Origin: Bacilli bacterium
GTDB taxonomy: Bacteria; Bacillota_I; Bacilli_A; RFN20; CAG-826
Direction: 5' to 3'
NCBI GenBank assembly: GCA_017454295.1
Contig: JAFTDF010000004.1
Span: forward strand, 52,904 to 116,903
DNA: 64,000 bases
Part shown: positions 1-40,419 of the stretch, in pieces
Position numbering within the stretch: the first letter of the stretch is position 1
How the letters are laid out: every line of letters starts with the position of its first letter
Notes under the pieces: generated by a model
The model's input: the letters and a program-made list of their open reading frames with translations, nothing else
Told to the model about the DNA's origin: nothing
Databases searched by the model: none
Translations under genes and position numbers: made by a program

Positions 1-35
1 GCTTTCGCGGCCAAAATCGAAGGGGAAACGATCAT
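1..35 (-). CDS. rpe: ribulose-phosphate 3-epimerase, first 11 codons only (gene runs off the window)
   Basis: ATG at 35-33 overlaps the kinase TGA (ATGA). The translation MIVSPSILAAK resembles the conserved Rpe N-terminus (..APSILSAD). Its position after prkC matches the Bacillus ylo cluster. Confidence 0.4.
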   Translation of the reverse strand, partial: MIVSPSILAAK

Positions 36-20734: not shown

Positions 20735-20763
20735 AAATAAGGGGCAAATCGTCCCTTATTTTT
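20735..20763. terminator. bidirectional intrinsic terminator between convergent genes
   Basis: 9-bp stem AAATAAGGG/CCCTTATTT with a 9-nt loop. An A-run precedes it and a T-run follows it. It overlaps the stop of the 368-aa gene. Confidence 0.5.
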
Positions 20764-21862
20764 CGTTTTCTTTTCCTAAGTTCGCAAACGCTTCTTTTTG
20801 GGTTTGGTAGGCGGCGATAAGCTCTCCATAATAGAGGTTTCTCATCCGCGCATAGGCGATGCGTTCTTCTTCGCCGGCCGTGGCCATATATAAAGAGGTA
20901 AAGAACTTTTCTAAGCGGAAGAACGATTCGTAGAGATTCAAGATGGTGACGAAATAGAAATAATTCTTCCGCGAATAAATCAAGACGGGGGAACTATGGG
21001 CGATTTCGGAAGCCATTTCATAGACTTTCGAATAATGGGTGAGGCCCGCGACCCGTTCCACCCCATCGCGGAAATTGAATTTGAAATCGGGGATCTCGGT
21101 CGCCCCTTTTACACCCGTGAGCCAGCCATATTCGATAAAGCGTTTCATGTCTTTCGACTTCAATCCAATTTCATGCATTCTGGCTTTGATGTCGACGAAA
21201 ACGGAGTCGGTTTCTTCTTTGCTGGAAAGGCCGCCGCGGAAGGCCACGCCATAACGAATATGACGAAGATAGGCTTCCACCGCTCCTTCGCCATGGCGGA
21301 CTAAGATGGAAAGGATACATTCGTTTTCATGGAGGGTGCGCCAGGTTGAGAAGGCTTCCGTCTCAAACCCTTCCTCCAAAAGCGAGGCCACGCATTTGCC
21401 CATTTGGAATCCCTTCATCATCACGTCGACGAGCAACGTGCGTTCGGGATCGCCTTGTTGATAACGGGACAAGATGCCAAGGACGAAATTCAAATAGAGG
21501 TCCAAGGTCGACATCGCCGGGGAAAACCGCGAGGTCAAATTCCCGATGCGATAGGCAAATTTTTCATTGGTGTAATACTTATCCAACGACACGGAGGCGA
21601 GGAAGCTCAGATAGGATTCGTCGTTGGCGAGCTCTTCTTGGCTACGTTCGGGATGGGTAGCCAAATAAAAGGCATGCTCATTGATTAAATAAAGCGATAG
21701 CTGCAATGGGTTGACGCCTAGCGATGCTAGCGGCGCCACATCCTGGGATTCGTGGGCGCCTTCGTAGGCATAGGAAAACGCCTTGAACAAAAAATCCCGG
21801 TCATATTTGGGATCGAGGTTCACGTGGTCGAGGAATTCGTAGAAGGCTTGCCGTAGTTCCAT
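20756..21862 (-). CDS. hypothetical protein, probably all-alpha and cytoplasmic
   Basis: 368-aa ORF with no signal peptide or TM helix and no motif I recognise. Confidence 0.55.
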   Translation of the reverse strand: MELRQAFYEFLDHVNLDPKYDRDFLFKAFSYAYEGAHESQDVAPLASLGVNPLQLSLYLINEHAFYLATHPERSQEELANDESYLSFLASVSLDKYYTNEKFAYRIGNLTSRFSPAMSTLDLYLNFVLGILSRYQQGDPERTLLVDVMMKGFQMGKCVASLLEEGFETEAFSTWRTLHENECILSILVRHGEGAVEAYLRHIRYGVAFRGGLSSKEETDSVFVDIKARMHEIGLKSKDMKRFIEYGWLTGVKGATEIPDFKFNFRDGVERVAGLTHYSKVYEMASEIAHSSPVLIYSRKNYFYFVTILNLYESFFRLEKFFTSLYMATAGEEERIAYARMRNLYYGELIAAYQTQKEAFANLGKENEK

Positions 21863-21894: not shown

Positions 21895-22785
21895 CTATTG
21901 GGGTTTCCCTGGCACGAACAAATCCGCTTGTTCCACCCATGGGGAAATGGGCGAATTTCCTGGCGCGTAAGAGACCCACACCACTTCCACTTTCCGAAGC
22001 AGCGCTTGGCTTTCCACGGCGTCCCGCCTTGCCAGTTCCTTCGCATCGGGAAGTTTTAGTTCCCGACATTCTTCCTCTGAAAACACCCCGTTTTCTCGTT
22101 CCACGGGTCCGAAGTTTTCGCGTGAAAAGTCCACGATATAGACGCGGCTATGAACCGGTACGGTCTTTTCTTTGGCGAAAGTGATCAACGGGGAGGAAAG
22201 TGGGAGGTCTTTCGGTTCCAGTCCATAGATGACGATATCCTTCTCTCCAGCGAACAGATCGGCTTCGATGGCATGAGATAGTGAGGCGATTTCTTCTTCG
22301 CGGGAAGCAAAACGATACAAAGGAATGGGCGTTGTCCGCTTCGGCGGGATTTGATCCCAAGACAAAGCGATGTTCGGCAAGGACTCGATCGAAGTGGCGA
22401 TTCGTTTCCCGTCGGCATAACCACGTATCACAATCGGACGGCCACGAAAAAAGTCATAGGGATTTGTGGATTGATAAAGCAAACCCTGACGTAGGAATCC
22501 TTCAAAAACAGGTTGGAGGTGACGTAACTTTTCGCTTTTGTAAGTCGCTCCAACTTGGAAATGGCGAAGGCCTTCTAATACCTCTTGGGGCGAGGCATAG
22601 CCACGTTGAATGAGCGTTTCGATCGCTTCCGGAGCGGCTTGATAAAGGAACATTTCTTCCACCGCTTCGATGGTCAAAACATCAAAATGCTGGTCGGGAT
22701 AGGCCTTACGATAAGCGGAGAAAAACCCCTTTTCCGAAGCAGGCGCAATCAGGATCGCGTTTTCGTATAAGGGGTAACGAATCAT
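21895..22785 (-). CDS. hypothetical protein
   Basis: 296-aa ORF starting 15 nt after the glpK stop, with no Walker motifs. There is only a faint resemblance to helicase-accessory (AddB-like) N-terminal segments. Confidence 0.5.
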   Translation of the reverse strand: MIRYPLYENAILIAPASEKGFFSAYRKAYPDQHFDVLTIEAVEEMFLYQAAPEAIETLIQRGYASPQEVLEGLRHFQVGATYKSEKLRHLQPVFEGFLRQGLLYQSTNPYDFFRGRPIVIRGYADGKRIATSIESLPNIALSWDQIPPKRTTPIPLYRFASREEEIASLSHAIEADLFAGEKDIVIYGLEPKDLPLSSPLITFAKEKTVPVHSRVYIVDFSRENFGPVERENGVFSEEECRELKLPDAKELARRDAVESQALLRKVEVVWVSYAPGNSPISPWVEQADLFVPGKPQ

Positions 22786-24348: not shown

Positions 24349-25614
24349 TTAGCGGTTGGAATAGAAACGTTCGATGTCGTCGATTTCCTTCAAGATGGAA
24401 GAAGTGAGGACTTCGGCGCCATGCTCGGTGATGAGCAAATCGTCTTCGATACGGACCCCGATTTTGAGATCCTTGAAATAAAGTCCGGGTTCATCGGAAA
24501 TCACGTTGCCGGCTTGTAAAGGCACATCGCGGCTTCCCGGATCATGGGTGTCCAAACCGATATGATGGGAAACCCCATGGAAATAGTAATTCCGAATCTC
24601 TTCCTTGGTTTGAATCAAGCCTTTTTCCAAGCATTCGGAAGCAAGGAATTCCACGGTTAAATTCTGCAAATCCTTGATGGTTAACCCCGGTTTTGCGGCT
24701 TTTGCGATCATTTTGTTGCAGTTTAAGACGATTTGATAAATGGTCCGTTGCAAATCATTGAACTTCCCATTCGCGGGCACGGTACGGCTGACGTCGGCGC
24801 AATAATAGCCGCAGCGGGAGCCCAAATCCATCAACACCAAATCCTCTTTGCCAATGGTATCGGTGGGCGTCGGATAATGGAGGCAAGTCGTATGGACCCC
24901 ACTGGCCAAGATCGTGGGGAAGGCCACACCTTGGTAGCCGGAGATGTCGTTGATGACGTGATGGAATTCATCGGCGATCTCATATTCTTTTTTCCCAGGG
25001 GCGATACGGGCCATGGCCGCCATGATGCCAAGGCGCGTCGCTTCGATGGCGGAGCGGAATTCGGCGATTTCGTTTTCCGACTTCACCAAACGTAAGGAGA
25101 CGATATCCCCATAGATATCTAAAATCTCGATGCCATGGAACACCGTTTCCAATGAGCGGCGATAATCCTCGATATAGGTGCCCTCGGCGATCTTGTTTTC
25201 CCGTTCCAAATCCAAATAGACGGTACGGATGGGACCATAATCGCTATAGGCGCCCCGGATGGCGTTATCGACGCGGGTGCTTAGCGAGGTGTTGAGCAAG
25301 ACGTTGCGGATACCGGAAATCGTGCCGGCTTCTTCGATGGTGAGCTTCTTCCCATACCACTTTTCTTTGTTGGGATCGAAGGGAGAAATCAAAAGGTATT
25401 CCCGTTCCTCGCCTTCCACCTTATATAAAAGCAGCACGGAGTCTTCTTGGTCGATGCCGGTGAGGTAATAGAAATTGCGGTTGACTTCGAAGGGATAGGA
25501 TTCGTCCGCGGAGCACTTCTTGGGATAACCGCTAAAAAGAATGGCGAAACTGTTGTCCCGCATTTTCGAGAACAAGGCTTTCCGCCGGTTTTGGTATTCG
25601 GTAAAGGGAATCAT
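24349..25614 (-). CDS. Xaa-Pro aminopeptidase/dipeptidase (M24B)
   Basis: Creatinase-like N-domain followed by the metal-ligand motifs DLGSRCGYYCADVSRT, HGVSHHIGLDTHD, EPGLY and IRIEDD. Confidence 0.9.
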   Translation of the reverse strand: MIPFTEYQNRRKALFSKMRDNSFAILFSGYPKKCSADESYPFEVNRNFYYLTGIDQEDSVLLLYKVEGEEREYLLISPFDPNKEKWYGKKLTIEEAGTISGIRNVLLNTSLSTRVDNAIRGAYSDYGPIRTVYLDLERENKIAEGTYIEDYRRSLETVFHGIEILDIYGDIVSLRLVKSENEIAEFRSAIEATRLGIMAAMARIAPGKKEYEIADEFHHVINDISGYQGVAFPTILASGVHTTCLHYPTPTDTIGKEDLVLMDLGSRCGYYCADVSRTVPANGKFNDLQRTIYQIVLNCNKMIAKAAKPGLTIKDLQNLTVEFLASECLEKGLIQTKEEIRNYYFHGVSHHIGLDTHDPGSRDVPLQAGNVISDEPGLYFKDLKIGVRIEDDLLITEHGAEVLTSSILKEIDDIERFYSNR

Positions 25615-26222
25615 GATACTTTCTCCTCTATGATGGTGATGGTTTGTTCGTCTTGAAGTAAGTCGAGGGATAAGCCCGCTTTTTCAAAGACCGGATGTAG
25701 TTTAGCACTAGAAATGGCCGTTGTTTCCACTTTTATTCCGAAAGCGGTCTCTTTTAAAGAGAAACCGTATTTCTCCGAGAGGCGGAGAATGGTTTGATAA
25801 GCGGAATAGTCCACCTCCAAATGATAAGAATAGACCTGTTTCTCGACCCCAAGCCTAGCCGACGAAATGGCAAGTTCCGCCGCTTCTAAAATGGAGCGAC
25901 GAAGCCGGGGAATGCCTAGTTTGGTGCCGCCGAAATAACGGGCCACAATCAGATAGCCATAGAGGTCTTTTTCTTCCAAAAGGCTTAACAAAGGGCGGCC
26001 GGCACTCGAACCGGGCTCACCATCGTCGCTGCTTTTGCCCCGGTCTTTAAGCCGATAGGCATAGGGATAATGATCGGCTTTGGGGAAGCGTTTCTTAAAA
26101 GAATCATAGATTTCCTTAAAGGAAGTTTCGTCCGAAAGCGGCCCCACTTCTCCATCGAAGGTGGAGCCCAAACATTTATATTCCCCAGTGGCCGGGGCGA
26201 AAGGTAAACGCGCCATGATCAA
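25611..26222 (-). CDS. yigZ: IMPACT/YigZ family protein
   Basis: UPF0029-type motif SSDDGEPGSSAGRPLL and FGGTKLG, with a C-terminal DUF1949-like domain. It has ATGA overlaps on both sides. Confidence 0.8.
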   Translation of the reverse strand: MIMARLPFAPATGEYKCLGSTFDGEVGPLSDETSFKEIYDSFKKRFPKADHYPYAYRLKDRGKSSDDGEPGSSAGRPLLSLLEEKDLYGYLIVARYFGGTKLGIPRLRRSILEAAELAISSARLGVEKQVYSYHLEVDYSAYQTILRLSEKYGFSLKETAFGIKVETTAISSAKLHPVFEKAGLSLDLLQDEQTITIIEEKVS

Positions 26223-29200
26223 GGATAGACAATCGAAGCGACTTCGGAATAGGAGAAGGCCTTGTTCACGCCACCGAGCAGGTTGCCCGTGCCACGATAA
26301 TCGTAGTAGACGTTACTGCTATCGAAATTGCCGTCGAGAGCGGAAGCGAGGCAATCATAGAGGTCACCCAAGTAGAATTGCTGCAGTAACACGGAAGCGG
26401 AATCGTTGCCCTTAGCAAAGTCGGAAATGGCACTGGCCAAACTTGCATCGTCCCCGCCATGATAAGCTTCCAAAGACTTGTAGGCCTTCTTGAGGCTTTG
26501 CATGACATCGAGCTTGTCATCGCTGCGGTCGAAGGCAGAGGCAACGCTCGTTAATCCGCATTCGCCATCGGCTAAGGTTGCCACCGCATCGCTAGAGAAG
26601 TAGACGCTACGATCACCGCTAGCCGGTGCCCCCACAAACAAGCCGGGGTGGCTATCAAGTCGAGCGAAGGCGTTATAAGAATAGGAGAGCTTTTTGGCGA
26701 TACCATAAAGGATACCTTGAGCGAAGGCGCCCGGTTCTTCATAAGCGTCGCTTTGCGTGATGAAGTTGGGGTTGCCTGCGCCCTCTTTGGTGCCGTAGAG
26801 GGTAACGGTTTTCGCGGTGAACTTCGAAGAATCAAGCGCGTCGTAAAGATGCTCGTAAGCTTCGCTCGTGGGGTCGCTAAGCAAATAGGATTCGCTGGCT
26901 CGGGCCACCGCCGGAGTAGGTGTCGAGGAGGTCGCGTTCTCGTAATAGCTCTTATTGGCCATCGCGTCGAGGAAGCCGATATCGTCGATGAACTGATCGA
27001 AATAGGCCGCTTCTCGGAAGCAGAATTCCTTCATATCGGATTCGGCGGAAGTCACTGCATAAATCCCAGTGGCGGCATCGTAACGATCGGTGGAACCAAA
27101 TGTGCCGAATTCGTCACCCATGCCAAGGGAAACGGGGACGGGCACGCCACCGACGGGAACCTCGGCCGTGACGTGGAAGAGGTTATACAAGACAAAGTCT
27201 TTGGCGGTGAAGGCATCGGCATGCAATTTGGTTTCGAATAAGCCGGAATCGGCGATCATCGAGAATAGACCAAAGGTCGAATGCTGGAAGCCGGTGGTGC
27301 ACTTATCGTCTTTCAGGAAGTTCGCCAATTCGCTCGAGCCTTCGTCGAAGGAATAATAGTATTTCACCGAGGACGGATCGACGTTGCCACGGAAGGTGGA
27401 GGTGAAGAAATAGTAAACGGAGGCGATGGCCTTTTCACGATAGGTTGCTTGGTCTTGGCGGTAGTTGGCGCAATCGAATTCCACGCTGGCATTGGTGAAG
27501 GAATTCGTGCCATCGCCTTGAACCTCGAAGCCACCAGGGAGCTTGGCCAGATTCAACGTATAGGTCGTGCCGGTGTGACTCATCGAAACGAGTTCGGTGA
27601 CGTCAATCAAGCCATAATAAAGGTGGATCGAAGAGGCCGTCCCCGCATAATCGAAGGTGAGTTTATCGGGCATGCCAAACCCATCCCCGCTGACATCGAA
27701 GCTCAAAGTCAGGCCATCCGGCAAATCCATGACGTCATCGCTATAAACGTGGAAGCCTAGACCAATACCGGAATCGGATTTCCCCGAGACGAAACGGGCC
27801 AAGGTGTTGGGCATGATGGCATTGCCGACTTGGCAGCCATTTAGGGCTTGGAAGAGCGCATAGAGCTCAAAGGGTTGGTATTTGTTAAGTTGGACATCGC
27901 CGAGTTCGACGTCGGCGGTCTTAAAGCCAAGACGCTGGACGGTTTCCACCAAGCCGACGTTGGCGTCATTTGCTTCCCCAGGGCGATCGACGCCAGGATG
28001 ATGACGATGGCCATCGGTGGTCAACGCGGAAATCTCATCACCCCAATCGGTGGTGAGCATGGCACCGGAAACATCTTCAAGGGTGCCTTCTTCAAAGGCG
28101 GCGATCGCATCGTGGATTTTGAATAAACCCGCGGCTTTGAGGTAATCGTCATAATCGGCCGAAGAGAGATCGGGCAAATGCTTGACGATGCCACGGGTGC
28201 CTTCGCGTGCCTCAAGGTAGAGCTCTAAGTCTTCCGCGCTTTGGGTCAATTCCAGGTTTTGCTGAGCCAAACCGGAATCGATGTAAATCTTCTGGATGAA
28301 TTGCTCGAAGATGGTCAAATCGTTTTGGCGGAATAGCGTCCCCGTGGTCGCGGATTCGCTTTCTTTGGCAAAGCCATAGCCATCCTCGGCACGGTAATAC
28401 TCCCAGGTCTCGGAATAGTGGCCGTCGGCGGCCTTGTTGGGACCGGCTTCATGGAAGATATAAGAGTTATAGAGGTCGAAGAGCATCGTCCGGACGATCA
28501 TCGGATCGACGAAGGAGACGTCGAATTCTGACATGTTGGACTTATTATTCTTCAAAGCGTCGACGACATAGCAAACCTGATCGATTTCGGGTTCATAGAA
28601 CGGCACTTCGTAATCCAGGGAATGAATGGCCTTCAAATCCCCGTTTTCATCCACCCATTCATAGGAGAAGAAGACGTTGGTCAGCGACAAGTCGACCCCT
28701 AAGATATCGTAGGTGCCCTTCCACAGATTGCTATGAAGGGCATTGGGCACGACATCGCGGAGGAAATAGGCATCGTTAAGGCCATGGAGGATCAAGGATA
28801 GCACCGTGCCATCCATCGAAGCAAAGTCGGTGGAGGAACCGCCGGAAACGTAGGGGCTTAAGGTCGGGGAGCCAAGGATTTCGATGAAATCGCAGAACTC
28901 GCGGATATGGTCATCCATCTCATCGGGTTGGAGGGTGCGGACTTGGCCGATGTAATAGAGGGCTTTGCCCATCGCCAAGTCATAATCCCCATCCGCGGCG
29001 TGAGCCTGATCCTTGGGACTATCGGCATAGAAGTAATACTCAGAAAGGGCATCCGTGGCGATGAGGTCCGCTAAGAGGTTTTCGAAGCAGGTATGACCTT
29101 TTTTGGCTTCGTAATCGGGATACTTCGGGTCGGCGGGATCGATATCGAAAACCGCATCGGCCTTGCTCTTATTCGAATCGAAGGGACCAGATTCATACAT

Positions 29201-32200
29201 GGTCGAAAGGGCTTCGGAGAGCGCTTGTGCATCTAAGGAGGCGATGTTATTGGGGTCGGCGCTGGAGCAAGAAGAGAGATAGAACATCACGTCGACGATG
29301 TCGTTGATGTCGTCAGGCCCATAGGCACCATAGTCATCTCCGGAGAGGGAGAGGGTGAAATAGAAGTCGGCGCATTGGATGTCTTTGCCGATGGATTCCC
29401 CATAATCGCCGCGCTCGATGGCGTCGGTAAGGTAATAGGGCAACGCGCGGCGGAAGATTTCCACATCGTTGAAATGGGTGAAGAGCCCATTCATTTCCAC
29501 CCGCTTGGCCAGTTTCGTGGTTAAATCATAGCCAAAATAGGATGCGATATCGGTGAAGGCATCGGTGGAAAGGTTCCCATCACCATCGATGAAATCCGTG
29601 GCTTGGATGAAATCGATGAGACCGCACAGGTGTTCGATTTCCCCATCGGCCCCTTCCCAGGAGGCGTCGGGTAGCGAGGTAATGATGGAATAGACGGATT
29701 CTTTGCTGGGATAGCCAAGGAGCAATCCGCCTTTGTCCACCGCTTCATCTAACGGGGTTCTCCAGGTCATATCGGCTCGGCTATTGTCGATCTTGTAGAT
29801 GCCGGAATTCATCGTGATCGAGCCTAGAATCTGCTGGAAGACGGTCGCGTCATGGGCGGCATGATAGGCGCTGGCACGGCTGCCAAGGGCCTCGTCATCG
29901 GGATGGAAGACTTTCGAACGGTGAGCCGAAAGCAGCATCGGACGGAGCAATTGGTCGGAAGACACGTCCTTGATCTTGATACCGGAAACATCGATCTTCC
30001 CGGCACTATCGACTAAGCCGTAATTCTCGTCATAGATGGTGTCGAGCGTATCCATCAAATGATCGATCTCGGTTTTCTTCCAAGCATAGGCGGCCTCCTT
30101 GTCGTAAGTGGCGGGGTCGCGATGCACGTCATAGAAGTAAGCCGGATAAGCCGCGTGGAAATCGATATCATCTCCGGCATCGACTTTGTTCAAAGCCTCG
30201 GTTAAGGCGTTGGCTACGAAGACGGTGGAGAAAGAATAAGAAGCACTGATATGGGATAAGGCGGACCGCATCGCCGGCAGGTTAGATGCTTCGATTTTGG
30301 AAAGCGCATCGAAACTACCGAGGGATTTCAAATCGACGAACACCGCATCTAAGGCATCGAATTCGCCGGTTTTGGTTCCGTTTTTCTGCCAAACGGAAGG
30401 ACGGTTCAATTGGAGGCAGGATTCATAGAAAGCGGAGCAACGTTCGAGGCTCGTGTCCCCCACCGGGGTTTCATCTTCGAAATAGTGGGCGTTGGCGCCG
30501 GCACTGGCGAGGATCTTCTCGGCGAAATATGCGGGGAAGGAATAATAACGGGTGGTGCCATCGCCGGTTTCCTCGGCAGGAATCACGAGACTCGGATCGG
30601 GCGATTCGATGGAACTGGCCAAAGGTTGGAACATCATCGAGCCGGACATTTGGTTCATGAGATCGATCAAAGCGGTCCCATCCTTAAACAAATCGAAATT
30701 GGAAAGATCCAATCCACGGGCGGCCAAATCGATCAAGGTTTGGAAGCGTTCGCCTTCGTCGGCCCAATCCTTCTCGCTGATGAGGTTCCGGAAAGTAATG
30801 CCCATCGGTTTCAGCACGAGCTTGTTGTCGTTATTGAGCAAGGGGTCGAGGACTTTGGAATCGAAGTAACCGGGCAAGACTTTCCGTAACACGACGGATT
30901 GCCCGATCGAAGCGAAGATCTCCTTCATATCGCAGCCCACCAAATGGGAAGCAATGTCGTTGGTGGAGGCCATGTCGGTGAGGCGGTCAAGAACGCCACT
31001 GGCCATCACGCGGGAAACCGCGCCGACCATGAAGGCGTTTTCATGGTAATCGCTCGGCTCACCATCATAGGAATCGACGATCGATACCGGTTTGGCATAG
31101 GTGGAGACCATCTCGATGCCATCGAGGTCGTCGAAGGCCAATTTGTTTTCGATCTTGATACTGTCGAAGAGGTAATTGAACACCTTGGTCATGTTGACGT
31201 TGGTGACCTGATCGATGACGGGGTTCAAGATCAAGGAATCGGCAAAGACATCCAACACCTTCAGGAATTCGGAGCCGTGAGCGTTCAATGCCTGAGCGAT
31301 GGAATCCAACGTGAAATTGCCAGGGCGAAGGAAGATGGGGAAGACGGAATGGCACTGCGCCCCGAGCGTTAGGAACTTGGCGAGTTCGCGGCCCAATACG
31401 GGCTTACCTTCCGCCTCTGGGGAAGTATCGATGGTCTCGATATTGAAGTTGGATAAGACGTCGGCTTGTTTTAAGAAGCGATCGGCCAAAACCGGCATCG
31501 CCGCGGAGAACATCGTCGAGCCATCGATGCGGCGGAAGCCATTGGCCAAAGCCTTAAATAGATTTGGATCATAGCCATGTAAGCCACCTTCGGGGTTCAT
31601 ATCGATGCCGACGTGGGTTTTGAAGTCATAGAAGAGGTTCTTTGCCGCCGTCACGATGACTTCGCCTTTGGCAAGCAAGGTTTCGTCGGTGGAACCGGCA
31701 TAGGGGTTTTCAAGCATATCACCCGCCACATCCAGCATGGCGCCAAATTCCCGTTTGTTATTGACGTAATTAGGCGTCCCGTCCGCGTTTTGTAAGGCGA
31801 TGGCCGCTTTACTCAAATCCACTTTTTCGGGGTGGTCTTTCAATAAGGAATCGTTTAATAAAGCCGACACGATTTCCATCCCGACGGGGAAAGCGACGTT
31901 GACCAATCCAGAATCCAGCAAACAGCCGCCGGCGGAAAGGCCTTTGTCGTTAACGATGGGTTCATCATTCACATCGCGTTCGCCCACGAGAAGACGAATC
32001 AATTCACGGTGGTCTTTTGCAAACGCGGCGAGAGCACTGTTAAGCAAGTCGGTGTCCGTTAGCGGTGCGGAACTATCGGCTTGGTGGATGCGACCCACGA
32101 GCGATTTGGTCAAACCGGCATCGAGCCGATTAAGCCCGTGGAAGGTTTTCACCACGGCGTAGGCATCTTGCAAATAAGGGTAAGAAGCAATGGCCTTGGT

Positions 32201-33556
32201 ATCGGACTTGCCTTCCGGGAGCAAGGTTTTAAGATCCGCATCGGCACTGCGATCATAGACATAGCCGCGTAACACCGATTCGACGAGGCGGGAAGAAGAA
32301 GGAGAAGCCATCGCTTCCTCTAAGGAACGTAAGGAGGCGTCGGAGGTTAAGGCATCATAGAGATTGCCGATCTCCGGATAGGCACGCAAGGAGCGAGAGG
32401 GATCGACTTCGGTGGGAATAAAACCGGAGGAGGTCAAATCGCGGTAGAGATGATAGCAACGGTTCAAATAAGATTTTTCGTTGCCTCTCGCAAAGCTTAG
32501 GGCGGTATCGCTAGTCGCGGAAGATAGGGCAACGGTGTCGCGAGAAAGCGAGGTGGCAAGGGCGCTGACATCGGCTAAGACATCAAGACCATCGTCGCCG
32601 GAAAGGGTCAGCATTTGCACCAAGCTTTGGCCCACGATTTGAATCGGCAATAGCGCCAAAGAGTCCGTCTCGTTCTTGGTGACGGAATTGCCCATTAAGG
32701 CGAAGAAGCCGCCCCCGACGCTAGCAAGGGAGCGCACCTCGGTGACGATGTTGGCGGACATATTCTCGTATTGGGCTTGGGAAAGGAATTCCGTCAATTG
32801 GGTATCCAGTGTGTCTTTGCCACTGCCTTTGGTCCAAGAGAAGAATGCCTTGTTGAGAATCGAGTTGTCATAGGTCTCCATGACCTTTTGATACATTTGG
32901 ACGGTTTCGTTTTTGTCGTTGAGTTTGGTGTAATCCACATGGGAATGGACGGCGTTGACCATGCCGCTGAGCGGGGCGATGGTTAAGACCAGGCACATCG
33001 CGCCGACGAGTAACCCTTCGATCCCGGAAATAATCAAAAGGCGCCGTTTGCGGGCGGGCTTGGGGATAAAGTGCTTGAAGAGAATATGCCACAGCAAGAA
33101 GGAGAGAAGGCTGCCCACGGTGGCAACAGTGATCCCAATCAAGATAATCGTGACGTAACGAAGGATGGAGGCAGAGATCGCGGTGGAATAGTTGAGCAAA
33201 GCATCGATCGAGGATTGGACTTTGAAGGCATCTTTAAGGATCTTGAAGACCCCTTCTTTCACCATGTCAAACAGGGGGCCGGGGCTCACTTCGATGACCG
33301 TTTCCCGAATCATGAAACGCAAAGGCTGATGGAGCCAAGTGGCTAAATTGATTTGACCAACGGTGTTGGCAATCATCCCCGAGCAGGCAAGTAAAGCCAC
33401 GGTCATGATGGAGAGGAAGAGGAAACGATAGGTCCCGTGTTTCCAGCCATAAAGCAAGCCGACGAGGAAATAGACTAGCAGCAATCCGAGCACCGACCAA
33501 AACACGATCATGAACACGAGGTCGAGCGTTTTGATAAAGGAATCGATATCTATCAT
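26219..33556 (-). CDS. giant (2,445 aa) acidic membrane-anchored protein of unknown function
   Basis: One uninterrupted ORF. About four N-terminal TM helices have a tentatively CvpA-like topology, and the basic loop KPARKRR implies the C-terminal ~2,250 aa face outward. The body is Asp/aromatic-rich, Lys/Arg-poor and shows no obvious repeats. Confidence 0.8.
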   Translation of the reverse strand: MIDIDSFIKTLDLVFMIVFWSVLGLLLVYFLVGLLYGWKHGTYRFLFLSIMTVALLACSGMIANTVGQINLATWLHQPLRFMIRETVIEVSPGPLFDMVKEGVFKILKDAFKVQSSIDALLNYSTAISASILRYVTIILIGITVATVGSLLSFLLWHILFKHFIPKPARKRRLLIISGIEGLLVGAMCLVLTIAPLSGMVNAVHSHVDYTKLNDKNETVQMYQKVMETYDNSILNKAFFSWTKGSGKDTLDTQLTEFLSQAQYENMSANIVTEVRSLASVGGGFFALMGNSVTKNETDSLALLPIQIVGQSLVQMLTLSGDDGLDVLADVSALATSLSRDTVALSSATSDTALSFARGNEKSYLNRCYHLYRDLTSSGFIPTEVDPSRSLRAYPEIGNLYDALTSDASLRSLEEAMASPSSSRLVESVLRGYVYDRSADADLKTLLPEGKSDTKAIASYPYLQDAYAVVKTFHGLNRLDAGLTKSLVGRIHQADSSAPLTDTDLLNSALAAFAKDHRELIRLLVGERDVNDEPIVNDKGLSAGGCLLDSGLVNVAFPVGMEIVSALLNDSLLKDHPEKVDLSKAAIALQNADGTPNYVNNKREFGAMLDVAGDMLENPYAGSTDETLLAKGEVIVTAAKNLFYDFKTHVGIDMNPEGGLHGYDPNLFKALANGFRRIDGSTMFSAAMPVLADRFLKQADVLSNFNIETIDTSPEAEGKPVLGRELAKFLTLGAQCHSVFPIFLRPGNFTLDSIAQALNAHGSEFLKVLDVFADSLILNPVIDQVTNVNMTKVFNYLFDSIKIENKLAFDDLDGIEMVSTYAKPVSIVDSYDGEPSDYHENAFMVGAVSRVMASGVLDRLTDMASTNDIASHLVGCDMKEIFASIGQSVVLRKVLPGYFDSKVLDPLLNNDNKLVLKPMGITFRNLISEKDWADEGERFQTLIDLAARGLDLSNFDLFKDGTALIDLMNQMSGSMMFQPLASSIESPDPSLVIPAEETGDGTTRYYSFPAYFAEKILASAGANAHYFEDETPVGDTSLERCSAFYESCLQLNRPSVWQKNGTKTGEFDALDAVFVDLKSLGSFDALSKIEASNLPAMRSALSHISASYSFSTVFVANALTEALNKVDAGDDIDFHAAYPAYFYDVHRDPATYDKEAAYAWKKTEIDHLMDTLDTIYDENYGLVDSAGKIDVSGIKIKDVSSDQLLRPMLLSAHRSKVFHPDDEALGSRASAYHAAHDATVFQQILGSITMNSGIYKIDNSRADMTWRTPLDEAVDKGGLLLGYPSKESVYSIITSLPDASWEGADGEIEHLCGLIDFIQATDFIDGDGNLSTDAFTDIASYFGYDLTTKLAKRVEMNGLFTHFNDVEIFRRALPYYLTDAIERGDYGESIGKDIQCADFYFTLSLSGDDYGAYGPDDINDIVDVMFYLSSCSSADPNNIASLDAQALSEALSTMYESGPFDSNKSKADAVFDIDPADPKYPDYEAKKGHTCFENLLADLIATDALSEYYFYADSPKDQAHAADGDYDLAMGKALYYIGQVRTLQPDEMDDHIREFCDFIEILGSPTLSPYVSGGSSTDFASMDGTVLSLILHGLNDAYFLRDVVPNALHSNLWKGTYDILGVDLSLTNVFFSYEWVDENGDLKAIHSLDYEVPFYEPEIDQVCYVVDALKNNKSNMSEFDVSFVDPMIVRTMLFDLYNSYIFHEAGPNKAADGHYSETWEYYRAEDGYGFAKESESATTGTLFRQNDLTIFEQFIQKIYIDSGLAQQNLELTQSAEDLELYLEAREGTRGIVKHLPDLSSADYDDYLKAAGLFKIHDAIAAFEEGTLEDVSGAMLTTDWGDEISALTTDGHRHHPGVDRPGEANDANVGLVETVQRLGFKTADVELGDVQLNKYQPFELYALFQALNGCQVGNAIMPNTLARFVSGKSDSGIGLGFHVYSDDVMDLPDGLTLSFDVSGDGFGMPDKLTFDYAGTASSIHLYYGLIDVTELVSMSHTGTTYTLNLAKLPGGFEVQGDGTNSFTNASVEFDCANYRQDQATYREKAIASVYYFFTSTFRGNVDPSSVKYYYSFDEGSSELANFLKDDKCTTGFQHSTFGLFSMIADSGLFETKLHADAFTAKDFVLYNLFHVTAEVPVGGVPVPVSLGMGDEFGTFGSTDRYDAATGIYAVTSAESDMKEFCFREAAYFDQFIDDIGFLDAMANKSYYENATSSTPTPAVARASESYLLSDPTSEAYEHLYDALDSSKFTAKTVTLYGTKEGAGNPNFITQSDAYEEPGAFAQGILYGIAKKLSYSYNAFARLDSHPGLFVGAPASGDRSVYFSSDAVATLADGECGLTSVASAFDRSDDKLDVMQSLKKAYKSLEAYHGGDDASLASAISDFAKGNDSASVLLQQFYLGDLYDCLASALDGNFDSSNVYYDYRGTGNLLGGVNKAFSYSEVASIVYP

Positions 33557-33563
33557 GCCCTTA

Positions 33564-33592
33564 ATTATGCGTTAGGCGCGGATAAATCGCAA
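33564..33592 (-). promoter_or_regulatory. promoter TTGCGA-N17-CATAAT, 7 nt upstream of the giant-gene ATG; leaderless candidate
   Basis: The minus strand reads TTGCGA-tttatccgcgcctaacg-CATAAT-TAAGGGC-ATG(33556). Confidence 0.5.
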
Positions 33593-33661: not shown

Positions 33662-34543
33662 ATGCCAAATCGTTTTACCCGCATTCATTGCCCCCATTGC
33701 CAACAACCCATGGATCCCGTTTCCCCGACCTGTCCCCATTGTCAGGGCGAGAATCCCGATCCGAAAATGAAGACGGCTTATCTCCATCAGTTGATCGTTC
33801 CGACGTGGAAGCAAATCGTGCTTTTCATCATCGGCCTGATCGGTCTGAATGTCGTCGCCACGATCGTCCAATTCGGCATGGAGGTGACCTATACCGCCAC
33901 CCACCCCGGTGCCACTGTTCAAGATATCGCGAATTATCTGACGGAACCCACCAACCTTTTCATCCCCAACGCCATCGCCTATGTCAGCGTCGGCATCGCC
34001 CTTGGTTTGCTGCTATGGAAAGCTTGGCCCGCGATCTTCAAACCTTTGAAACGGTGGCAGCCCTATGTTGCCGCTTTGGTGGCCTTTGTCGCCGTCATCG
34101 TGGCCGAGATCGTCTATTCCCAGTTCTCGGGTGCCGTGCTCAAAGCGATGGGCATCGTCCCGCAAAGCAATACCAACCAGCAAGGAATCGTGGCCATGGT
34201 CAAGGCCGTTCCGGCGTTCTCCTTCATTGTCTTTGGCTTGATTGGCCCCTTCTGCGAAGAGGTGACTTACCGCGTCGGCTTGTTCGGATTCCTGGGCCGC
34301 TTCAACAAGGTCGTGGCTTATCTGGGCACCGCGTTGATCTTTGGGTTGATCCACTTCGGCTGGAGCGCCATTTGGAGCCCGGCCTATCCTGGCCATTTCA
34401 TCGTCGAGCTGATCAACCTCCCGCCCTATATCGGCGCTGGAGCCGTCTTCTGCTTCATCTATGACCGCTGGGGATTCGGCGCCGCCTTCTTGGCTCACGC
34501 CACCAACAACGTGTTCTCCGTGATCACATCCATGATTAGTTAA
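33662..34543 (+). CDS. CPBP (CAAX/Abi) intramembrane metalloprotease with N-terminal zinc ribbon
   Basis: Zinc ribbon CPHCQQ..N10..CPHCQG. CPBP motifs are EEVTYRVGLFG, FGLIHFGW and HATNNV. Confidence 0.8.
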   Translation: MPNRFTRIHCPHCQQPMDPVSPTCPHCQGENPDPKMKTAYLHQLIVPTWKQIVLFIIGLIGLNVVATIVQFGMEVTYTATHPGATVQDIANYLTEPTNLFIPNAIAYVSVGIALGLLLWKAWPAIFKPLKRWQPYVAALVAFVAVIVAEIVYSQFSGAVLKAMGIVPQSNTNQQGIVAMVKAVPAFSFIVFGLIGPFCEEVTYRVGLFGFLGRFNKVVAYLGTALIFGLIHFGWSAIWSPAYPGHFIVELINLPPYIGAGAVFCFIYDRWGFGAAFLAHATNNVFSVITSMIS

Positions 34544-34545
34544 GC

Positions 34546-35454
34546 ATGTCCGACCGGAAAAACCCGCAAATCCTCTCTGGTTTTGGCCTTCGCATCTTCG
34601 CGATGGTTTTCATGGTCATCGACCACATCGGCGTTTTGATGCTCAATTATCAAGCCGATATCGGAGAGGGTGCCAATACCGCAATCACGGTGTTACGGGC
34701 GATTGGCCGTCTCGCCTTTCCTTTGTTCGTCTTCCTGATGGCGGAAGGGTTCCATTACACCCGAAATGGGTGGCGTTACCTTGGCCGTATCGGGATCGTC
34801 TATGCCCTCATCATCAGCGCCATGACCATCTATATCTTCGGCATTGCCAAAGACCCCAACTTGGCCCATGGCAATTTCCCTGGGCCCAATCCGTTTACGG
34901 ACTTAATCCTCATCGGGGGCACCTTGTTTGCCCTGAACTCAAAAGGCTGGAAGAAACTATGGGCTTTGCTTCCCGCGGGCATCGTCGTCACCGCCCATGT
35001 GGTCAACGTTTTAGAAGCGGCCACTTCCTACACCTATATGTGGTTCCCCAACTACCTCCGTCCGGATTATGGCTTATTCGGACTTTGCCTTGCCTTAGGG
35101 TTCTATCTGGCACGCTTATTTGGCACGATGGTTTCCAAGAAGTCCGCCGCGGCGCTACAAATCAACGAAGAGGATTACCTCGCTTCCCCCAGCCATCAAC
35201 GGAACATGAACGTCCTCTCGGTTTTCTTCTTAATCACCGCCACCTTGGTTTTCTGGGGGATCAGCTACACCACTTACGACCCCCATAACATGCCGTTTGA
35301 AAGCTATTGCATCCTCGCCATTCCCTTCCTTTATCTTTATTCGGGGAAGCGTGGGTATAACGCAAAGTGGTTCCATGTGTTCTCTTATGCGTTTTTCCCG
35401 GTGCATTTGATTATCCTGTTTTTGATTTTCTTTGTATCATTTGGTCATATCTAG
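34546..35454 (+). CDS. TraX-family membrane protein
   Basis: Contains the signature LRIFAMVFMVIDHIG, is polytopic, and starts 2 nt after the upstream stop. Confidence 0.75.
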   Translation: MSDRKNPQILSGFGLRIFAMVFMVIDHIGVLMLNYQADIGEGANTAITVLRAIGRLAFPLFVFLMAEGFHYTRNGWRYLGRIGIVYALIISAMTIYIFGIAKDPNLAHGNFPGPNPFTDLILIGGTLFALNSKGWKKLWALLPAGIVVTAHVVNVLEAATSYTYMWFPNYLRPDYGLFGLCLALGFYLARLFGTMVSKKSAAALQINEEDYLASPSHQRNMNVLSVFFLITATLVFWGISYTTYDPHNMPFESYCILAIPFLYLYSGKRGYNAKWFHVFSYAFFPVHLIILFLIFFVSFGHI

Positions 35455-35465
35455 GAGGTAACCCT

Positions 35466-35768
35466 ATGCCAAAACAAATCGCCACCGCCGAAGAATTCGA
35501 CGCCGAAATCAAATCCGGTAAAGTCCTCGTGGACCTCTTTGCCACTTGGTGCGGCCCCTGCAAGATGCTTTCCCCCGTCATCGACCAAGTCGAAGCGGAA
35601 CATCCCGAAGTCAAATTCATCAAAGTGGACGTCGACGAAGTCCCGGCCATCGCCGCCCGTTATAACGTCTACTCCATCCCGACCATCCTCGTCTTCAACG
35701 ATGGGGAAAAGGTCAATGAGCAAATCGGCTTCGTTCCGAAACCGGGCATCGAAAAACTCATCGCCTAA
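35466..35768 (+). CDS. trxA: thioredoxin
   Basis: Active site WCGPCK, 100 aa, with an AGGAGG SD 7 nt upstream. Confidence 0.93.
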   Translation: MPKQIATAEEFDAEIKSGKVLVDLFATWCGPCKMLSPVIDQVEAEHPEVKFIKVDVDEVPAIAARYNVYSIPTILVFNDGEKVNEQIGFVPKPGIEKLIA

Positions 35769-37390: not shown

Positions 37391-39064
37391 CTACATGCGG
37401 TTCTCTTCGGTAAGGATTTCCAAAATGGGGGTCTTGGCGACCTTCCCAGCCAATAGAAGAGAGATAAGAAGCGACAAAACCGTGGTGACCGCGACGAGCA
37501 CCCCCAAGGCAATGGGGATATACCACCACTCGATGGTCAGGTTCATGTTGCTATCGAGTTTGATTTGGGACTGAATGGTTGCATCAAATACGAGTTTCGT
37601 GGCAACGCAAGCCCCACTCCCAAGCAAGACGGTGGGGATATAACCGCGGAAGAAGATGACGTTGATCTGGGCAAGGAAGATCTGAATGACACCTTTGCGA
37701 CGCATGCCCTGGGCACGGCACATCCCCAAAAATCCCTTCATGGATTCCACGGAGAAGTGCATGGTATTGATTAGATTCAATAACGTAGCCAAGAAGATAA
37801 CCCCGCCAAAAGCCCCTAATCCGACGCAAATATAGAGGAAACGATCGAAGAAGGCAGCGCAAGTGAAGAACGCCTCCGGCACGATGCGTGGATCATAATG
37901 GTAGAGGCTCAAATTATCAGGGTCACCAGTCACCGAAAGGCGATACTGCTGCAGGATATCCTCGTAACCATAACGGGCTTTTTGAAAGGAGGGGAATTCC
38001 AGAATCTGAGTCTTGGTGTAGGCCGGATAGAAATTGGCCCGGGAGAAGGTTCCTAATCCCATTGGGAAAAAGGCATAGCCGGCATCCGTGGTCTTTTTGG
38101 CGAGGGCTTCGGGCTTTTCGTCATAAACAAACCACGAGGTCATCGTTTGGTTCTGTCCTTCCGCGGGATGGAAGACGCGTCTGGGCGCCACCGCTTCTCC
38201 TTTTTCTCCCAAAGAGGCGGAAGAAATCCAGAAATAGTCGCGGGCATAGAAACGTTCCACTTCGGCCGAAGTTTCGTTGAATTGCAATGAGTAATAACGC
38301 GGCGACCGGGAATAATAGACGTCGGAATCGTAAACACCGACGATTTTGTAATTCACGAAATAGGGGACGGCGACCTGTTCTTGGTATTCCTTGGGTTGGA
38401 CGATTTCCTCGTCGCTAGAAGAATAGGCGCTCTTCGTCGAAGAGATGTAGTTATAGGCGGTCAGGGTCGAACCGATGATCGCTTCCCGGTCGAGTTCGAA
38501 ATCGCGGGTGAATTTGGAGGACACCATGATTTCCCCTTTGGAAGATGCGCCTTTCGAGAACGTGCTTCCCGTGATAAGAGGTTGCATGCCCAGGTGGTAG
38601 TCAGAGTCCAGGAATGGCTGATGGGCATCGTTTTCGTCGATGACCTGAATCCCGAAGAAATGGTACGTGGAGTAGCGCCCGGCCATGTTCCTCATGGGTT
38701 TTGGTTCACCGCCGTTAATGGAAAAAGACGGGGCATGTCCACTGTTATTCTCCGCATAGAGATAATCGTATTTGATGGATTTGGAGACGCCTTGGATTTT
38801 GTCGATGTCTCCCTCGCGGTCGGCTTGACAGAGCACTTTCCCGGAGACGGTTTGGGATTCGGTGTAGGTGACGCGCATCGAACGGAACGAGGGGTTGCGG
38901 TTGATTTCCGAATTGAATCCGCCATAGAAGCCGATGGCGATGAAAAGAAGCGGGTAGAGCAACGTCATCCCAAAGGAAATCCCAAGGACGCTTTGGAAAG
39001 TCGTCCGTTTCCTTGCCCTAAGCGAGAGTCGCGCCAGTCTCCAATATTCGTGCAACTTCATCAT
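37391..39064 (-). CDS. FtsX/MacB-type ABC permease with large extracytoplasmic domain (557 aa)
   Basis: TM1 is followed by a ~360-aa loop, three C-terminal TM helices and a canonical tail (KTPILEILTEE). The start MMKLHEYW at 39064 overlaps the stop of the upstream mini-ORF. Confidence 0.8.
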   Translation of the reverse strand: MMKLHEYWRLARLSLRARKRTTFQSVLGISFGMTLLYPLLFIAIGFYGGFNSEINRNPSFRSMRVTYTESQTVSGKVLCQADREGDIDKIQGVSKSIKYDYLYAENNSGHAPSFSINGGEPKPMRNMAGRYSTYHFFGIQVIDENDAHQPFLDSDYHLGMQPLITGSTFSKGASSKGEIMVSSKFTRDFELDREAIIGSTLTAYNYISSTKSAYSSSDEEIVQPKEYQEQVAVPYFVNYKIVGVYDSDVYYSRSPRYYSLQFNETSAEVERFYARDYFWISSASLGEKGEAVAPRRVFHPAEGQNQTMTSWFVYDEKPEALAKKTTDAGYAFFPMGLGTFSRANFYPAYTKTQILEFPSFQKARYGYEDILQQYRLSVTGDPDNLSLYHYDPRIVPEAFFTCAAFFDRFLYICVGLGAFGGVIFLATLLNLINTMHFSVESMKGFLGMCRAQGMRRKGVIQIFLAQINVIFFRGYIPTVLLGSGACVATKLVFDATIQSQIKLDSNMNLTIEWWYIPIALGVLVAVTTVLSLLISLLLAGKVAKTPILEILTEENRM

Positions 39065-39192
39065 GACACCTCGGAGATAACGGCCACGGGATCGGCCTTG
39101 ACGATGGCGCGCAAGGCACCGTGGGAGAACAAGATGGCAAACCCAACAAAGGCGACCAAAGCACCAAGGCATACATAGAAGGGCAGATACAT
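39061..39192 (-). CDS. 43-codon ORF encoding an FtsX TM4 plus C-terminal tail, in frame with the upstream permease across a TAA
   Basis: My translation is MYLPFYVCLGALVAFVGFAILFSHGALRAIVKADPVAVISEVS. It lies 8 codons after the TAA at 39214-39216 in the same frame. Its TGA overlaps the next ATG (ATGA). It is below the ORF-track size cutoff. Confidence 0.55.
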   Translation of the reverse strand: MYLPFYVCLGALVAFVGFAILFSHGALRAIVKADPVAVISEVS

Positions 39193-39213
39193 CGTCGCGA
39201 CGAATTTCAAGGA

Positions 39214-40419
39214 TTAGACGAATGCTCCGTAAGTAGAGGCCACCACAAGATTAATCAAGGAAGTCAAAGGAGTGAACATCGTCCAAAGTAGTAGATAACC
39301 CAGCAAAACCCCAACGCTTACCAAAAAAGCGGATTCGATGAAGACGACACTTTTGAGCGACCTTCCCCGCATTCCCAATGCTTTGGCCAATCCAAAGAAC
39401 TTCTTACTCCGGTCGATGGAGATGATCGCCGAATTGGCCAAGGAACCAACCGACATCAATAGCAAAATCAAAGCGAATAAAGCCGCGGCGGAAATGACGA
39501 CGCTTCGCATGGTTTTGTCACTGGCATATTGTTCGTAAACGGGGCAGGAAACGGTATCGGTATAATGGAGGATGCGGTCCGTTTCGAAATACTCGACGGT
39601 AATCCGCTTGGGCAAAACGGCATTGCATTTATCCGCCAAGGCGTTCAGGCGATTGATCGTACCTTCGGGGTCGCTTACTTTCCCCTGAGGCCGATGGTAG
39701 GCAGAGAACGATTCGACGATGGCGCGGCTAGGGAATGTGGTAAACGCGATTCCGATATCCCCGATGACTTGGCCAAAGGAAAGCGGGGAAACGTTCCCGT
39801 TGAGGACGATTTTCTCTCCGGTATATTCGAAAATCCCAACGACGACGAATTCCGGATAGCCATACTGGTCCGACCGCCAACCCCACAAATCGCGGACATA
39901 AGCCGAACGCGTATGCACGCTTCCGATGGTATAGGGATCGGGTTCTTCCCCTTCAAAGGATTTCTCATAAGCCTCTTTGCTGACGATGACCTCGTTGTGA
40001 GCTTCCGAAACAGCGATATTGCGTCCTTCGACGATTCGCAAGCCCGGACCGACGGGATAAGAGGGGTCGGTGTAGGTGATTTCCGATGCGATGTTGGTGG
40101 TGTAATAAATGGATTGGACCATATCCGGAGCAGATCCCACCGCATCCAAGAAGGCCGGGTATTCGGTTTCTTGGAAGTATCTTTGCTCCATGACATTGGT
40201 CTGCATGGCGTTGTTATAGTTGACGCTGACGAGGGCTTTTTCCGGGAAAAAGGCTTTTCCGATGATCTCCCCGCCGTTTTTCGCAAAGGAAACAGCCAGG
40301 CACAACATGCCCATGATGAGCGCGGACAAAAAGGTGGAGATGACCACGGTCAGGATCGAACGGGATCGATTCTCCTTAATGGTATGGAATGCGATTCTGC
40401 AACAATCCCTTGTCCTCAT
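39214..40419 (-). CDS. FtsX/MacB-type ABC permease, ends before the expected fourth TM helix (401 aa)
   Basis: TM1, an extracytoplasmic domain and the TM2-TM3 FtsX motifs are present. The ORF stops at TAA right after TM3. Confidence 0.75.
   Translation of the reverse strand: MRTRDCCRIAFHTIKENRSRSILTVVISTFLSALIMGMLCLAVSFAKNGGEIIGKAFFPEKALVSVNYNNAMQTNVMEQRYFQETEYPAFLDAVGSAPDMVQSIYYTTNIASEITYTDPSYPVGPGLRIVEGRNIAVSEAHNEVIVSKEAYEKSFEGEEPDPYTIGSVHTRSAYVRDLWGWRSDQYGYPEFVVVGIFEYTGEKIVLNGNVSPLSFGQVIGDIGIAFTTFPSRAIVESFSAYHRPQGKVSDPEGTINRLNALADKCNAVLPKRITVEYFETDRILHYTDTVSCPVYEQYASDKTMRSVVISAAALFALILLLMSVGSLANSAIISIDRSKKFFGLAKALGMRGRSLKSVVFIESAFLVSVGVLLGYLLLWTMFTPLTSLINLVVASTYGAFV

Follow-up and report, generated by a model that had tools for sequence, protein, structure and literature searches.

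A giant, modular candidate surface protein with a CvpA-like membrane anchor in uncultured gut and rumen Bacilli

What is a 2,445-residue protein without a recognisable domain for, and on which side of the membrane does the bulk of it lie? The question is raised by a gene in a 64,000-nucleotide stretch of DNA (assembly GCA_017454295.1, contig JAFTDF010000004.1, positions 52,904 to 116,903) from an uncultured member of the Bacilli (GTDB order RFN20, family CAG-826); the whole of this stretch is referred to below as the window. An earlier note, made from the letters alone, had described the gene product as an acidic, membrane-anchored orphan. The reading that we favour, with a moderate confidence in which belief and doubt are evenly balanced, is that it is a giant cell-surface protein, a membrane-anchored stalk with a variable tip, and that it represents a widespread family, so far undescribed, of uncultured Bacilli from the gut and rumen that include RFN20.

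The giant gene and its family

As the earlier note had reported, the giant gene is a single intact open reading frame (ORF), all other frames being broken: the longest competing ORF across it is 197 amino acids at most. The region does not stand out from the remainder of the window in GC content (0.525–0.535), and no tandem repeats were found in the gene at the DNA level using TRF. That the frame might be an artefact, either an assembly chimera or a decaying pseudogene, is suggested by one of three assemblies of the species (ENA, a 9.3-kb contig), in which a break near residue 1258 divides the gene into P0158 and P0157 (700 and 1,173 amino acids), the cause being a natural frameshift variant or else a mistake in assembly or sequencing. 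Against this, two full-length entries from different sources both encode the 2,445-residue protein. The window protein corresponds to P0155, an NCBI nr-sourced cluster member, and differs, by inspection, at one residue (H1309R) from P0001, a Logan/ENA entry; P0155 has His at this sole difference between window and representative. Furthermore, more than 140 full-length, collinear homologues come from independent assemblies, which rules out a chimera. Together with a confident AlphaFold model of residues 1295–2445, these entries and homologues refute the artefact reading for practical purposes, leaving it a negligible probability.

Nor is the protein an orphan. At E ≤ 1e-3, a profile of residues 1–1200 retrieves 328 proteins, each the representative of a 50%-identity cluster (189 at E ≤ 1e-30), so that the family numbers at least 328 cluster representatives, nearly all of them 1,200–3,000 amino acids long and collinear from residue ~1. 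A word-indexed search had yielded just six relatives with the full protein, the same six with a six-sequence alignment and none with the N-terminal alignment; the word index saturates on long queries or queries rich in transmembrane (TM) segments, hence the need for an exhaustive profile search. Among species-representative genomes, 14 have the gene at a conserved locus. All are metagenome-assembled genomes of uncultured Bacilli, Bacillales or Bacillota, most apparently of rumen or gut origin (goat rumen, reindeer, horse faeces), with L004 assigned to ‘Candidatus Enteromonas’, and the relatives’ ORF is intact at 1,340–2,795 amino acids wherever the contig is long enough. No paralogue was seen in any flanking region examined. 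Ten family members that were looked up have a name in no source, and literature searches found no paper describing the family. The window carries all the features by which we would delimit it, namely an anchor plus core (residues ~1–833), at least two modules of ~245 residues, and a locus in which a divergent CPBP gene precedes the giant gene and yigZ.

Conservation is graded along the protein. Of 154 representatives, 147–153 possess the anchor and both core halves; 33 have the beta region, and 58 and 36 have the first and the second C-terminal segment. Column conservation among 24 divergent members likewise falls from anchor to C-terminus (0.41, 0.36, 0.32, 0.30, 0.28, 0.14). Such a pattern, constant at the base, extensible along the stalk and variable at the tip, may be read as the architecture of a surface-exposed stalk protein.

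Anchor, stalk and tip

Hydrophobic segments are found only at residues 6–39, 43–66, 124–160 and 172–203, exactly four and all N-terminal where the earlier note had counted about four, and the two loops that it singled out, GWKHGTYR and KHFIPKPARKRR, are both present. Charged residues were counted in an alignment of 32 diverse family N-termini. The N-tail has on average 0.2 basic (K+R) and 1.3 acidic (D+E) residues, loop 1 has 1.5 and 0.0, loop 2 has 1.9 and 5.6, and loop 3 has 6.2 (minimum 4) and 0.4. The positive-inside rule therefore puts loops 1 and 3 in the cytoplasm, and the N-tail, loop 2 and everything beyond the fourth helix outside. The claim that the basic loop places ~2,250 residues outside the cell is thus borne out, as a prediction, by a charge bias that holds over 32 members, and from this rule together with the topology of CvpA we infer an external location for the large domain. 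A diverged CvpA-type four-helix domain would, on these features, insert in the membrane with both termini out and hold an acidic, mostly alpha-helical stretch of about 2,250 residues on the outer side.

The opposite topology would make the protein a membrane-tethered cytoplasmic scaffold, with an alpha-solenoid-like domain organising machinery inside the cell. The Cys content of the ectodomain is indeed like that of cytoplasmic proteins (0.8%; nine cytoplasmic proteins encoded in the window have 0.82%, and the median for the family is 0.55%), and the helical part weakly resembles intracellular alpha-solenoids (BIRC6, CAND1, karyopherins) in Foldseek searches. These matches are non-significant, however, and the inverted orientation is further opposed by at least four K+R in loop 3 in 32 of 32 members, by a loop 1 free of acidic residues, by an even number of TM helices combined with an acidic N-tail, and by the predicted periplasmic C-terminus of CvpA. 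We regard the scaffold as quite improbable. Long arrays of short helices are common to the giant protein and ARM/HEAT-like alpha-solenoids, which provide the best, if non-significant, Foldseek neighbours of both structure models described below, but the repeating unit of the giant protein is ~245 residues (two halves of ~110–125) rather than ~40, and the protein is predicted to be extracellular.

The resemblance to CvpA, which the earlier note had proposed tentatively, can be followed in some detail. Pfam Colicin_V (CvpA; PF02674) is the sole recurring family, matching four of 24 full-length members and nine of 32 N-termini at E ≤ 1, and is the most frequent match among the latter. The best match (25.8 bits, E 1.2e-5) aligns residues 17–188 with profile positions 5–122 of 144, and other members match in the same register across all four helices (profile ~4–131 of 144). 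Published work describes CvpA as a predicted four-pass protein with a C-terminus of variable length in the periplasm, conserved glycines including a GxxxG motif, and an N-terminal acidic residue before TM1 (bioRxiv 10.1101/2020.09.25.314492). The giant protein has the same predicted four-pass, N-out/C-out topology with a variable extracytoplasmic C-terminus, and its TM1 ends in a GxxxG motif whose glycines (G33 and G37) are 92–100% conserved in the family; Asp precedes TM1 in the query and its close relatives, the consensus there in the 32-member alignment being Asn. This comparison of glycines and acidic residues is one with the published description. Unlike CvpA, which is about 160–200 amino acids long, the giant protein adds a 2,250-residue C-terminal domain and an insert of ~60 residues between TM2 and TM3. 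The anchor probably works like CvpA and probably derives from it, though its match to the family stays below threshold.

The whole protein might instead be an expanded CvpA orthologue with its main role at the membrane, in envelope homeostasis (for example, the tolerance of bile or envelope stress that is reported for CvpA of enterobacteria), its ectodomain serving as a sensor or partner-binding extension in place of an adhesin or coat. The Colicin_V matches and GxxxG motif speak for this, as do the conservation of the anchor and juxtamembrane segment above all other regions, the variable C-termini of CvpA proteins (proposed to bind periplasmic partners), the gut origin of the organisms and a single-copy gene at a fixed locus. 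We nevertheless find it doubtful: a sensor role hardly accounts for a fast-evolving, copy-variable extension of 2,250 residues, the match to CvpA falls short of the threshold, and canonical CvpA has no known mechanism, so that the idea predicts little.

A CvpA-type anchor bearing an external domain has a precedent in MarP (Rv3671c) of Mycobacterium tuberculosis, in which a four-TM anchor of this type carries a periplasmic protease domain. The two proteins would be alike in presenting a C-terminal domain outside the membrane on an N-terminal four-helix anchor. That of MarP is a serine protease of ~200 residues, however, whereas the giant protein has a non-catalytic array of helical repeats without a protease motif.

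Beyond the anchor, the ectodomain (residues 201–2445, 2,245 residues) has an isoelectric point (pI) of 4.41, a net charge of −173 and 18 Cys, and is mostly helical in the AlphaFold models, in keeping with the acidic, largely helical character first ascribed to it. Motif scans agree with the earlier note that LPXTG and recognisable catalytic motifs are missing: LPXTG, HExxH and CxxC are all absent from the protein, scans for calcium-binding, metalloprotease, P-loop and CxxC motifs gave nothing convincing, and no D-x-D-x-DG-type motif was seen. Acidity is the sole basis for the calcium or metal binding that had been proposed. Pfam and NCBIfam searches of the query gave no match, and no adenylation, condensation, ketosynthase or carrier domain of a non-ribosomal peptide or polyketide synthase was found in them.

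The first part of the external region (residues 204–833) would form a conserved core and the next a stalk. In the core the juxtamembrane motif includes invariant Y229 and S232, and there are at most faint traces of repeats (for example, residues 670–788 against 877–987, probability 78%). The stalk is another matter. A 20-member alignment was cut into 200-residue windows and all non-overlapping pairs were compared by HHalign, which matched residues 1301–1491 with 1552–1750 (probability 99.2%, E 2.6e-19) and 1063–1248 with 1304–1499 (probability 99.0%). The unit at 1295–1545 matches copies at 834–1032, 1054–1253 and 1548–1775, plus a partial copy at 1836–1925, so that four and a half diverged helical modules of ~245 residues span residues 834–1939; after about residue 1940, HHalign detected no repeats. 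The same unit has half-shifted matches at 930, 1158, 1414 and 1646, indicating that each module consists of two related halves of ~110–125 residues, and these halves have a common W..E.EI..l..li motif. The earlier description of a non-repetitive protein without tandem repeats therefore stands for the DNA and falls for the protein, and with it goes the argument that the protein is unusual for a giant because it lacks repeats. The oddity lies in the type of repeat, a helical module without a match in the PDB, and in the type of anchor.

The number of modules varies between relatives. A module hidden Markov model counts two to eight per protein in 145 representatives of at least 1,200 amino acids. 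L006 and L012 (1,340 amino acids) have two units each, and in L008 seven strong units are accompanied by partial matches of lower strength. The first and second units are positional orthologues across proteins. In L011 units 3 and 4 (residues 1251–1434 and 1453–1643) are 57% identical, compared with 16–40% for other module pairs, pointing to a recent tandem duplication inside the gene. Internal duplication and loss would thus alter the length of the stalk, which would in turn set the reach of a variable tip with a binding or shielding function; the protein may be an adhesin, a surface coat or both.

Structure prediction was informative for the C-terminal half. AlphaFold modelled residues 1295–2445 from a 27-sequence alignment with a mean predicted local distance difference test score (pLDDT) of 82.3 and a predicted template modelling score of 0.76, giving many short helices arranged in modules, an eight-strand beta region (~1940–2028), a beta-hairpin (~2128–2145), a low-confidence insert (~1711–1743) and a helical C-terminus. 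The lineage-specific tip would include this beta region as an immunoglobulin-like (Ig-like) beta-sandwich. When compared with the PDB and BFVD using Foldseek, the model as a whole matched nothing at E ≤ 1e-3, and profile searches of PDB sequences also returned nothing. The beta region aligned with the Ig-like domains of the Enterococcus pilin EbpB (~107–110 columns, probability 0.69–0.89, E 0.2–0.55) and with PrgB (158 columns, probability 0.57, E 0.55). Residues 1–1200, modelled from the six-sequence alignment, gave a poor all-alpha prediction (pLDDT 51.8) in which only residues 300–790 reach 70–86. Foldseek matches of this model were discounted on account of its quality.

How does such a protein compare with known giant surface proteins? 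Like the giant adhesins of Gram-positive bacteria (LPXTG/MSCRAMM proteins, Ebh, SasC, PrgB and pilins), it is very large, acidic and modular, with variable repeats and a candidate distal binding region, and its Ig-like beta-sandwich resembles domains of EbpB and PrgB. It differs from them in having an N-terminal polytopic anchor in place of a signal peptide, LPXTG motif and wall anchor (neither a C-terminal hydrophobic segment nor an LPXTG-like motif is present, as a sortase-anchored protein would have), and in having helical repeats of ~245 residues rather than beta-rich Ig or Cna units. The beta-rich, Ig-like repeats of ~80–110 residues and calcium-binding nonapeptides of RTX/Bap-type adhesins were not found by Pfam in the query or 23 relatives. 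Gli349 and Gli521 of Mycoplasma mobile, a wall-less relative of the Bacilli, are giant membrane-anchored surface proteins that share with it their size, the presence of internal repeats and attachment through a TM anchor rather than to a wall. They are restricted to a few Mycoplasma species, where they form part of a dedicated motility machinery. General Pfam and NCBIfam searches, which did not include a search with the Gli sequences, gave no sign of a relationship, and there is no sign of motility machinery at the giant locus, where the neighbours are housekeeping genes or CPBP/TraX.

The locus and its neighbours

In 14 loci the gene order is a divergent CPBP gene, then the giant gene, yigZ, pepP and glpK, and the adjacency of giant gene and yigZ extends to distant members (features of the window are collected in Table 1). 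In four members ~16–19% identical to the query, the genes further downstream differ (hydrogenase, GGDEF proteins). Three of these four retain the complete block, in which the Rce1-like/CPBP, TraX and thioredoxin genes run away from the giant gene on one side and Impact_N (YigZ) follows it on the other; in the fourth, a polysaccharide-deacetylase gene is inserted before Impact_N and the block is otherwise kept. Across loci the giant protein is 22–42% identical to the query, compared with 55–78% for PepP and 66–82% for GlpK (in L007, 23% against 55% and 66%, respectively). Its pace of change is close to that of its membrane-protein neighbours CPBP and TraX and far above that of the housekeeping genes.

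Table 1. Features of the giant gene, its product and the surrounding window (window coordinates)
Feature	Position	Strand	Basis or remark
Giant ORF, 2,445 aa, 268 kDa, pI 4.5	26219..33556	-	ATG-to-stop reading frame
Sigma-70-like promoter, TTGCGA-17-CATAAT, ending 7 nt before ATG	33564..33592	-	consensus match
Residues 1-203, predicted four-TM CvpA-like anchor, N-out/C-out, G33xxxG37, basic loop KPARKRR	32948..33556	-	hydrophobicity, charge bias, sub-threshold Colicin_V
Residues 204-833, conserved membrane-proximal helical core, in about 95% of representatives	31058..32947	-	profile, alignment
Repeat module U1, residues 834-1053	30398..31057	-	profile comparison
Repeat module U2, residues 1054-1294	29675..30397	-	profile comparison
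Repeat module U3, residues 1295-1547	28916..29674	-	profile comparison, AlphaFold
Repeat module U4, residues 1548-1835, with low-confidence insert	28052..28915	-	profile comparison, AlphaFold
Partial fifth module, residues 1836-1939	27740..28051	-	profile comparison
Predicted beta-sandwich, Ig-like/pilin-like, residues ~1940-2035	27452..27739	-	AlphaFold strands (model residues 646-734), Foldseek
Residues 2036-2445, lineage-specific, mostly helical C-terminal tip, in 36-58 of 154 representatives	26222..27451	-	AlphaFold, profiles
yigZ (IMPACT family)	25611..26216	-	ATG 2 nt after giant TGA; downstream of giant gene in almost all relatives
CPBP/Rce1-like intramembrane protease-family gene, divergent	33662..34543	+	position kept in L015, L017, L018, L019
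TraX-family membrane protein gene	34546..35454	+	position kept in L015, L017, L018, L019
Thioredoxin gene, WCGPC motif	about 35466..35768	+	position kept in L015, L017, L018, L019
ORF without Pfam match	42607-44550	-	
ORF without Pfam match	10644-11867	-	
ORF without Pfam match	2704-4032	-	
ORF without Pfam match	47228-48163	+	
ORF without Pfam match	59749-60837	-	
ORF without Pfam match	21895-22785	-	

The giant gene would be co-transcribed with yigZ and divergent from the CPBP–TraX–thioredoxin block, and this block may, more speculatively, process or modify the giant protein. CPBP-family proteins are said to include sorting proteases (myxosortase) and reportedly play a role in lipoprotein N-acylation (LnsAB), and TraX acetylates the N-terminus of F-pilin; the CPBP–TraX pair could be a surface-protein maturation system, either for the giant protein or for lipoproteins.

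Upstream of the start codon, positions 33557–33592 of the interval that the earlier note had assigned to the gene fall outside the coding region and hold a promoter-like site with exactly the geometry given there (TTGCGA, 17 nt, CATAAT, 7 nt, ATG). The nucleotides between CATAAT and ATG are TAAGGGC. The site matches nine of 12 consensus positions, and two such sites lie in the 400-nt region, against 0.4 expected from shuffles. In three relatives (L002, L003 and L005) a (C/G)ATAAT box also lies 6–9 nt upstream of the ATG, and neither there nor in the window is the ATG preceded by a good Shine-Dalgarno sequence. As the −10 box lies close to the ATG, no good Shine-Dalgarno sequence is present and the arrangement recurs in these three relatives, a leaderless start is plausible, and the recurrence suggests that leaderless expression is kept among these closer relatives. 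The promoter geometry claimed in the earlier note is thus secure; a leaderless transcript, with which this consensus match is consistent, is plausible but unproven.

The fixed locus also bears on whether the giant protein might be a contact-dependent toxin, a polymorphic effector or a mobile, phage-derived protein, as its great size, variable C-terminal tip and faint tail-fibre-like matches could suggest. Pfam and NCBIfam searches revealed no toxin, immunity, Rhs, LXG or secretion-system domain, and PADLOC found nothing. PHROGs likewise returned nothing for the giant protein, TraX or YigZ, and for CPBP a single weak match to a family of unknown function. The gene occupies a chromosomal locus fixed between housekeeping genes across the clade, and is unremarkable in GC content for the window. 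These observations already disfavour such an origin, and the chance that it is correct appears very slim.

Several other features of the window deserve mention. Directly after yigZ is a gene encoding an Xaa-Pro aminopeptidase (M24B), the two together spanning 24349–26216 on the minus strand. In distant relatives yigZ stays by the giant gene and pepP does not, and E. coli also has a pepQ–yigZ pairing. Downstream of glpK come first the ORF at 21895–22785 and then a gene for a DUF5677 protein (20756–21862, minus strand) that is conserved at 55–71% identity in L002, L003, L005 and L006; in several loci a weak relative of the ORF occupies the corresponding place. The ORF is one of six of 296–647 amino acids that have no Pfam match (threshold 1e-8, or 1e-3 for this ORF). 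About 4 kb from the giant gene is a MacB-type exporter operon (37391–41117, minus strand) encoding an ABC ATPase and two FtsX-like permeases of 593 and 401 amino acids, of which one has a MacB-like periplasmic core domain. The only Rfam matches in the window are two tRNAs.

Predicted loss of the wall and a possible role of the giant protein

Uncultured Bacilli of RFN20 and related groups are common inhabitants of the rumen and of the horse, poultry and human gut, and for several of their families a loss of peptidoglycan and sortases is predicted. Candidatus Enteromonas corresponds to GTDB genus UBA733 in order RFN20, family CAG-826 (PMC8035907); CAG-826 is predicted to be peptidoglycan-deficient and the order RFN20 to be without sortases (PMC10868615). 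At least some members of the giant family come from lineages of this kind, in which the integral membrane anchor of the giant protein would replace attachment to the wall, and a role as adhesin or coat may be proposed from the combination of architecture, conservation gradient, evolutionary rate and the wall-less, sortase-less state predicted for relatives.

At one end of the window is a gene for a PrkC-like Ser/Thr kinase (32–958, minus strand), which follows genes for a PP2C phosphatase (897–1652) and RlmN (1649–2698). The kinase consists of the kinase domain alone and at 308 amino acids is therefore too short to include a TM segment or PASTA repeats as well. A kinase-only PrkC-like protein fits a peptidoglycan-deficient organism with wall-less relatives.

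Several points weigh against a surface stalk. The Colicin_V match of the family lies below the Pfam gathering threshold (29.3 bits), which no member reaches, and the query has no match to PF02674 at E ≤ 1. The Ig-like match of the modelled tip is local, and its E-value of 0.2–0.55 is not significant. The Cys residues of the ectodomain are not depleted relative to cytoplasmic proteins, and exported proteins of Firmicutes tend to avoid Cys. As the anchor and juxtamembrane region are the most conserved parts, the essential activity could lie at the membrane, with the stalk an accessory. The loss of the wall is predicted for CAG-826 at the level of the family, 64 kb of this genome being in view, and the localisation, expression and any binding of the giant protein are likewise predictions. 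Evenly balanced as it is, the surface stalk is the reading that we retain. A bolder version, in which the protein would be the main envelope structure of a peptidoglycan-deficient clade of gut Bacilli, its helical-repeat array having a new fold and being at once a coat or exoskeleton and an organelle for binding host or particles, replacing the roles of the wall and of sortase-anchored proteins and matured by the adjacent CPBP protease-like and TraX acyltransferase-like proteins, seems unlikely.

What is new here is the combination of a giant repeat-containing surface protein with a CvpA-type anchor whose C-terminus is predicted to be external; each of the two ideas is known on its own. If correct, the giant protein would be among the most extreme cases of a CvpA-type anchor displaying a large external domain, and would bear on the function of CvpA itself. 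The family comprises at least 328 sequence clusters without a name or a domain model, and profiles of its anchor, core and repeats could serve as the basis of new domain families. It touches, moreover, on the question of how gut Bacilli predicted to lack peptidoglycan and sortases build and decorate their surface: a conserved, single-copy, fast-evolving protein of 200–330 kDa, predicted to be external, with a confidently modelled but unmatched fold and fixed membrane-enzyme neighbours, is a candidate for a major surface component, antigen or phage receptor of these organisms.

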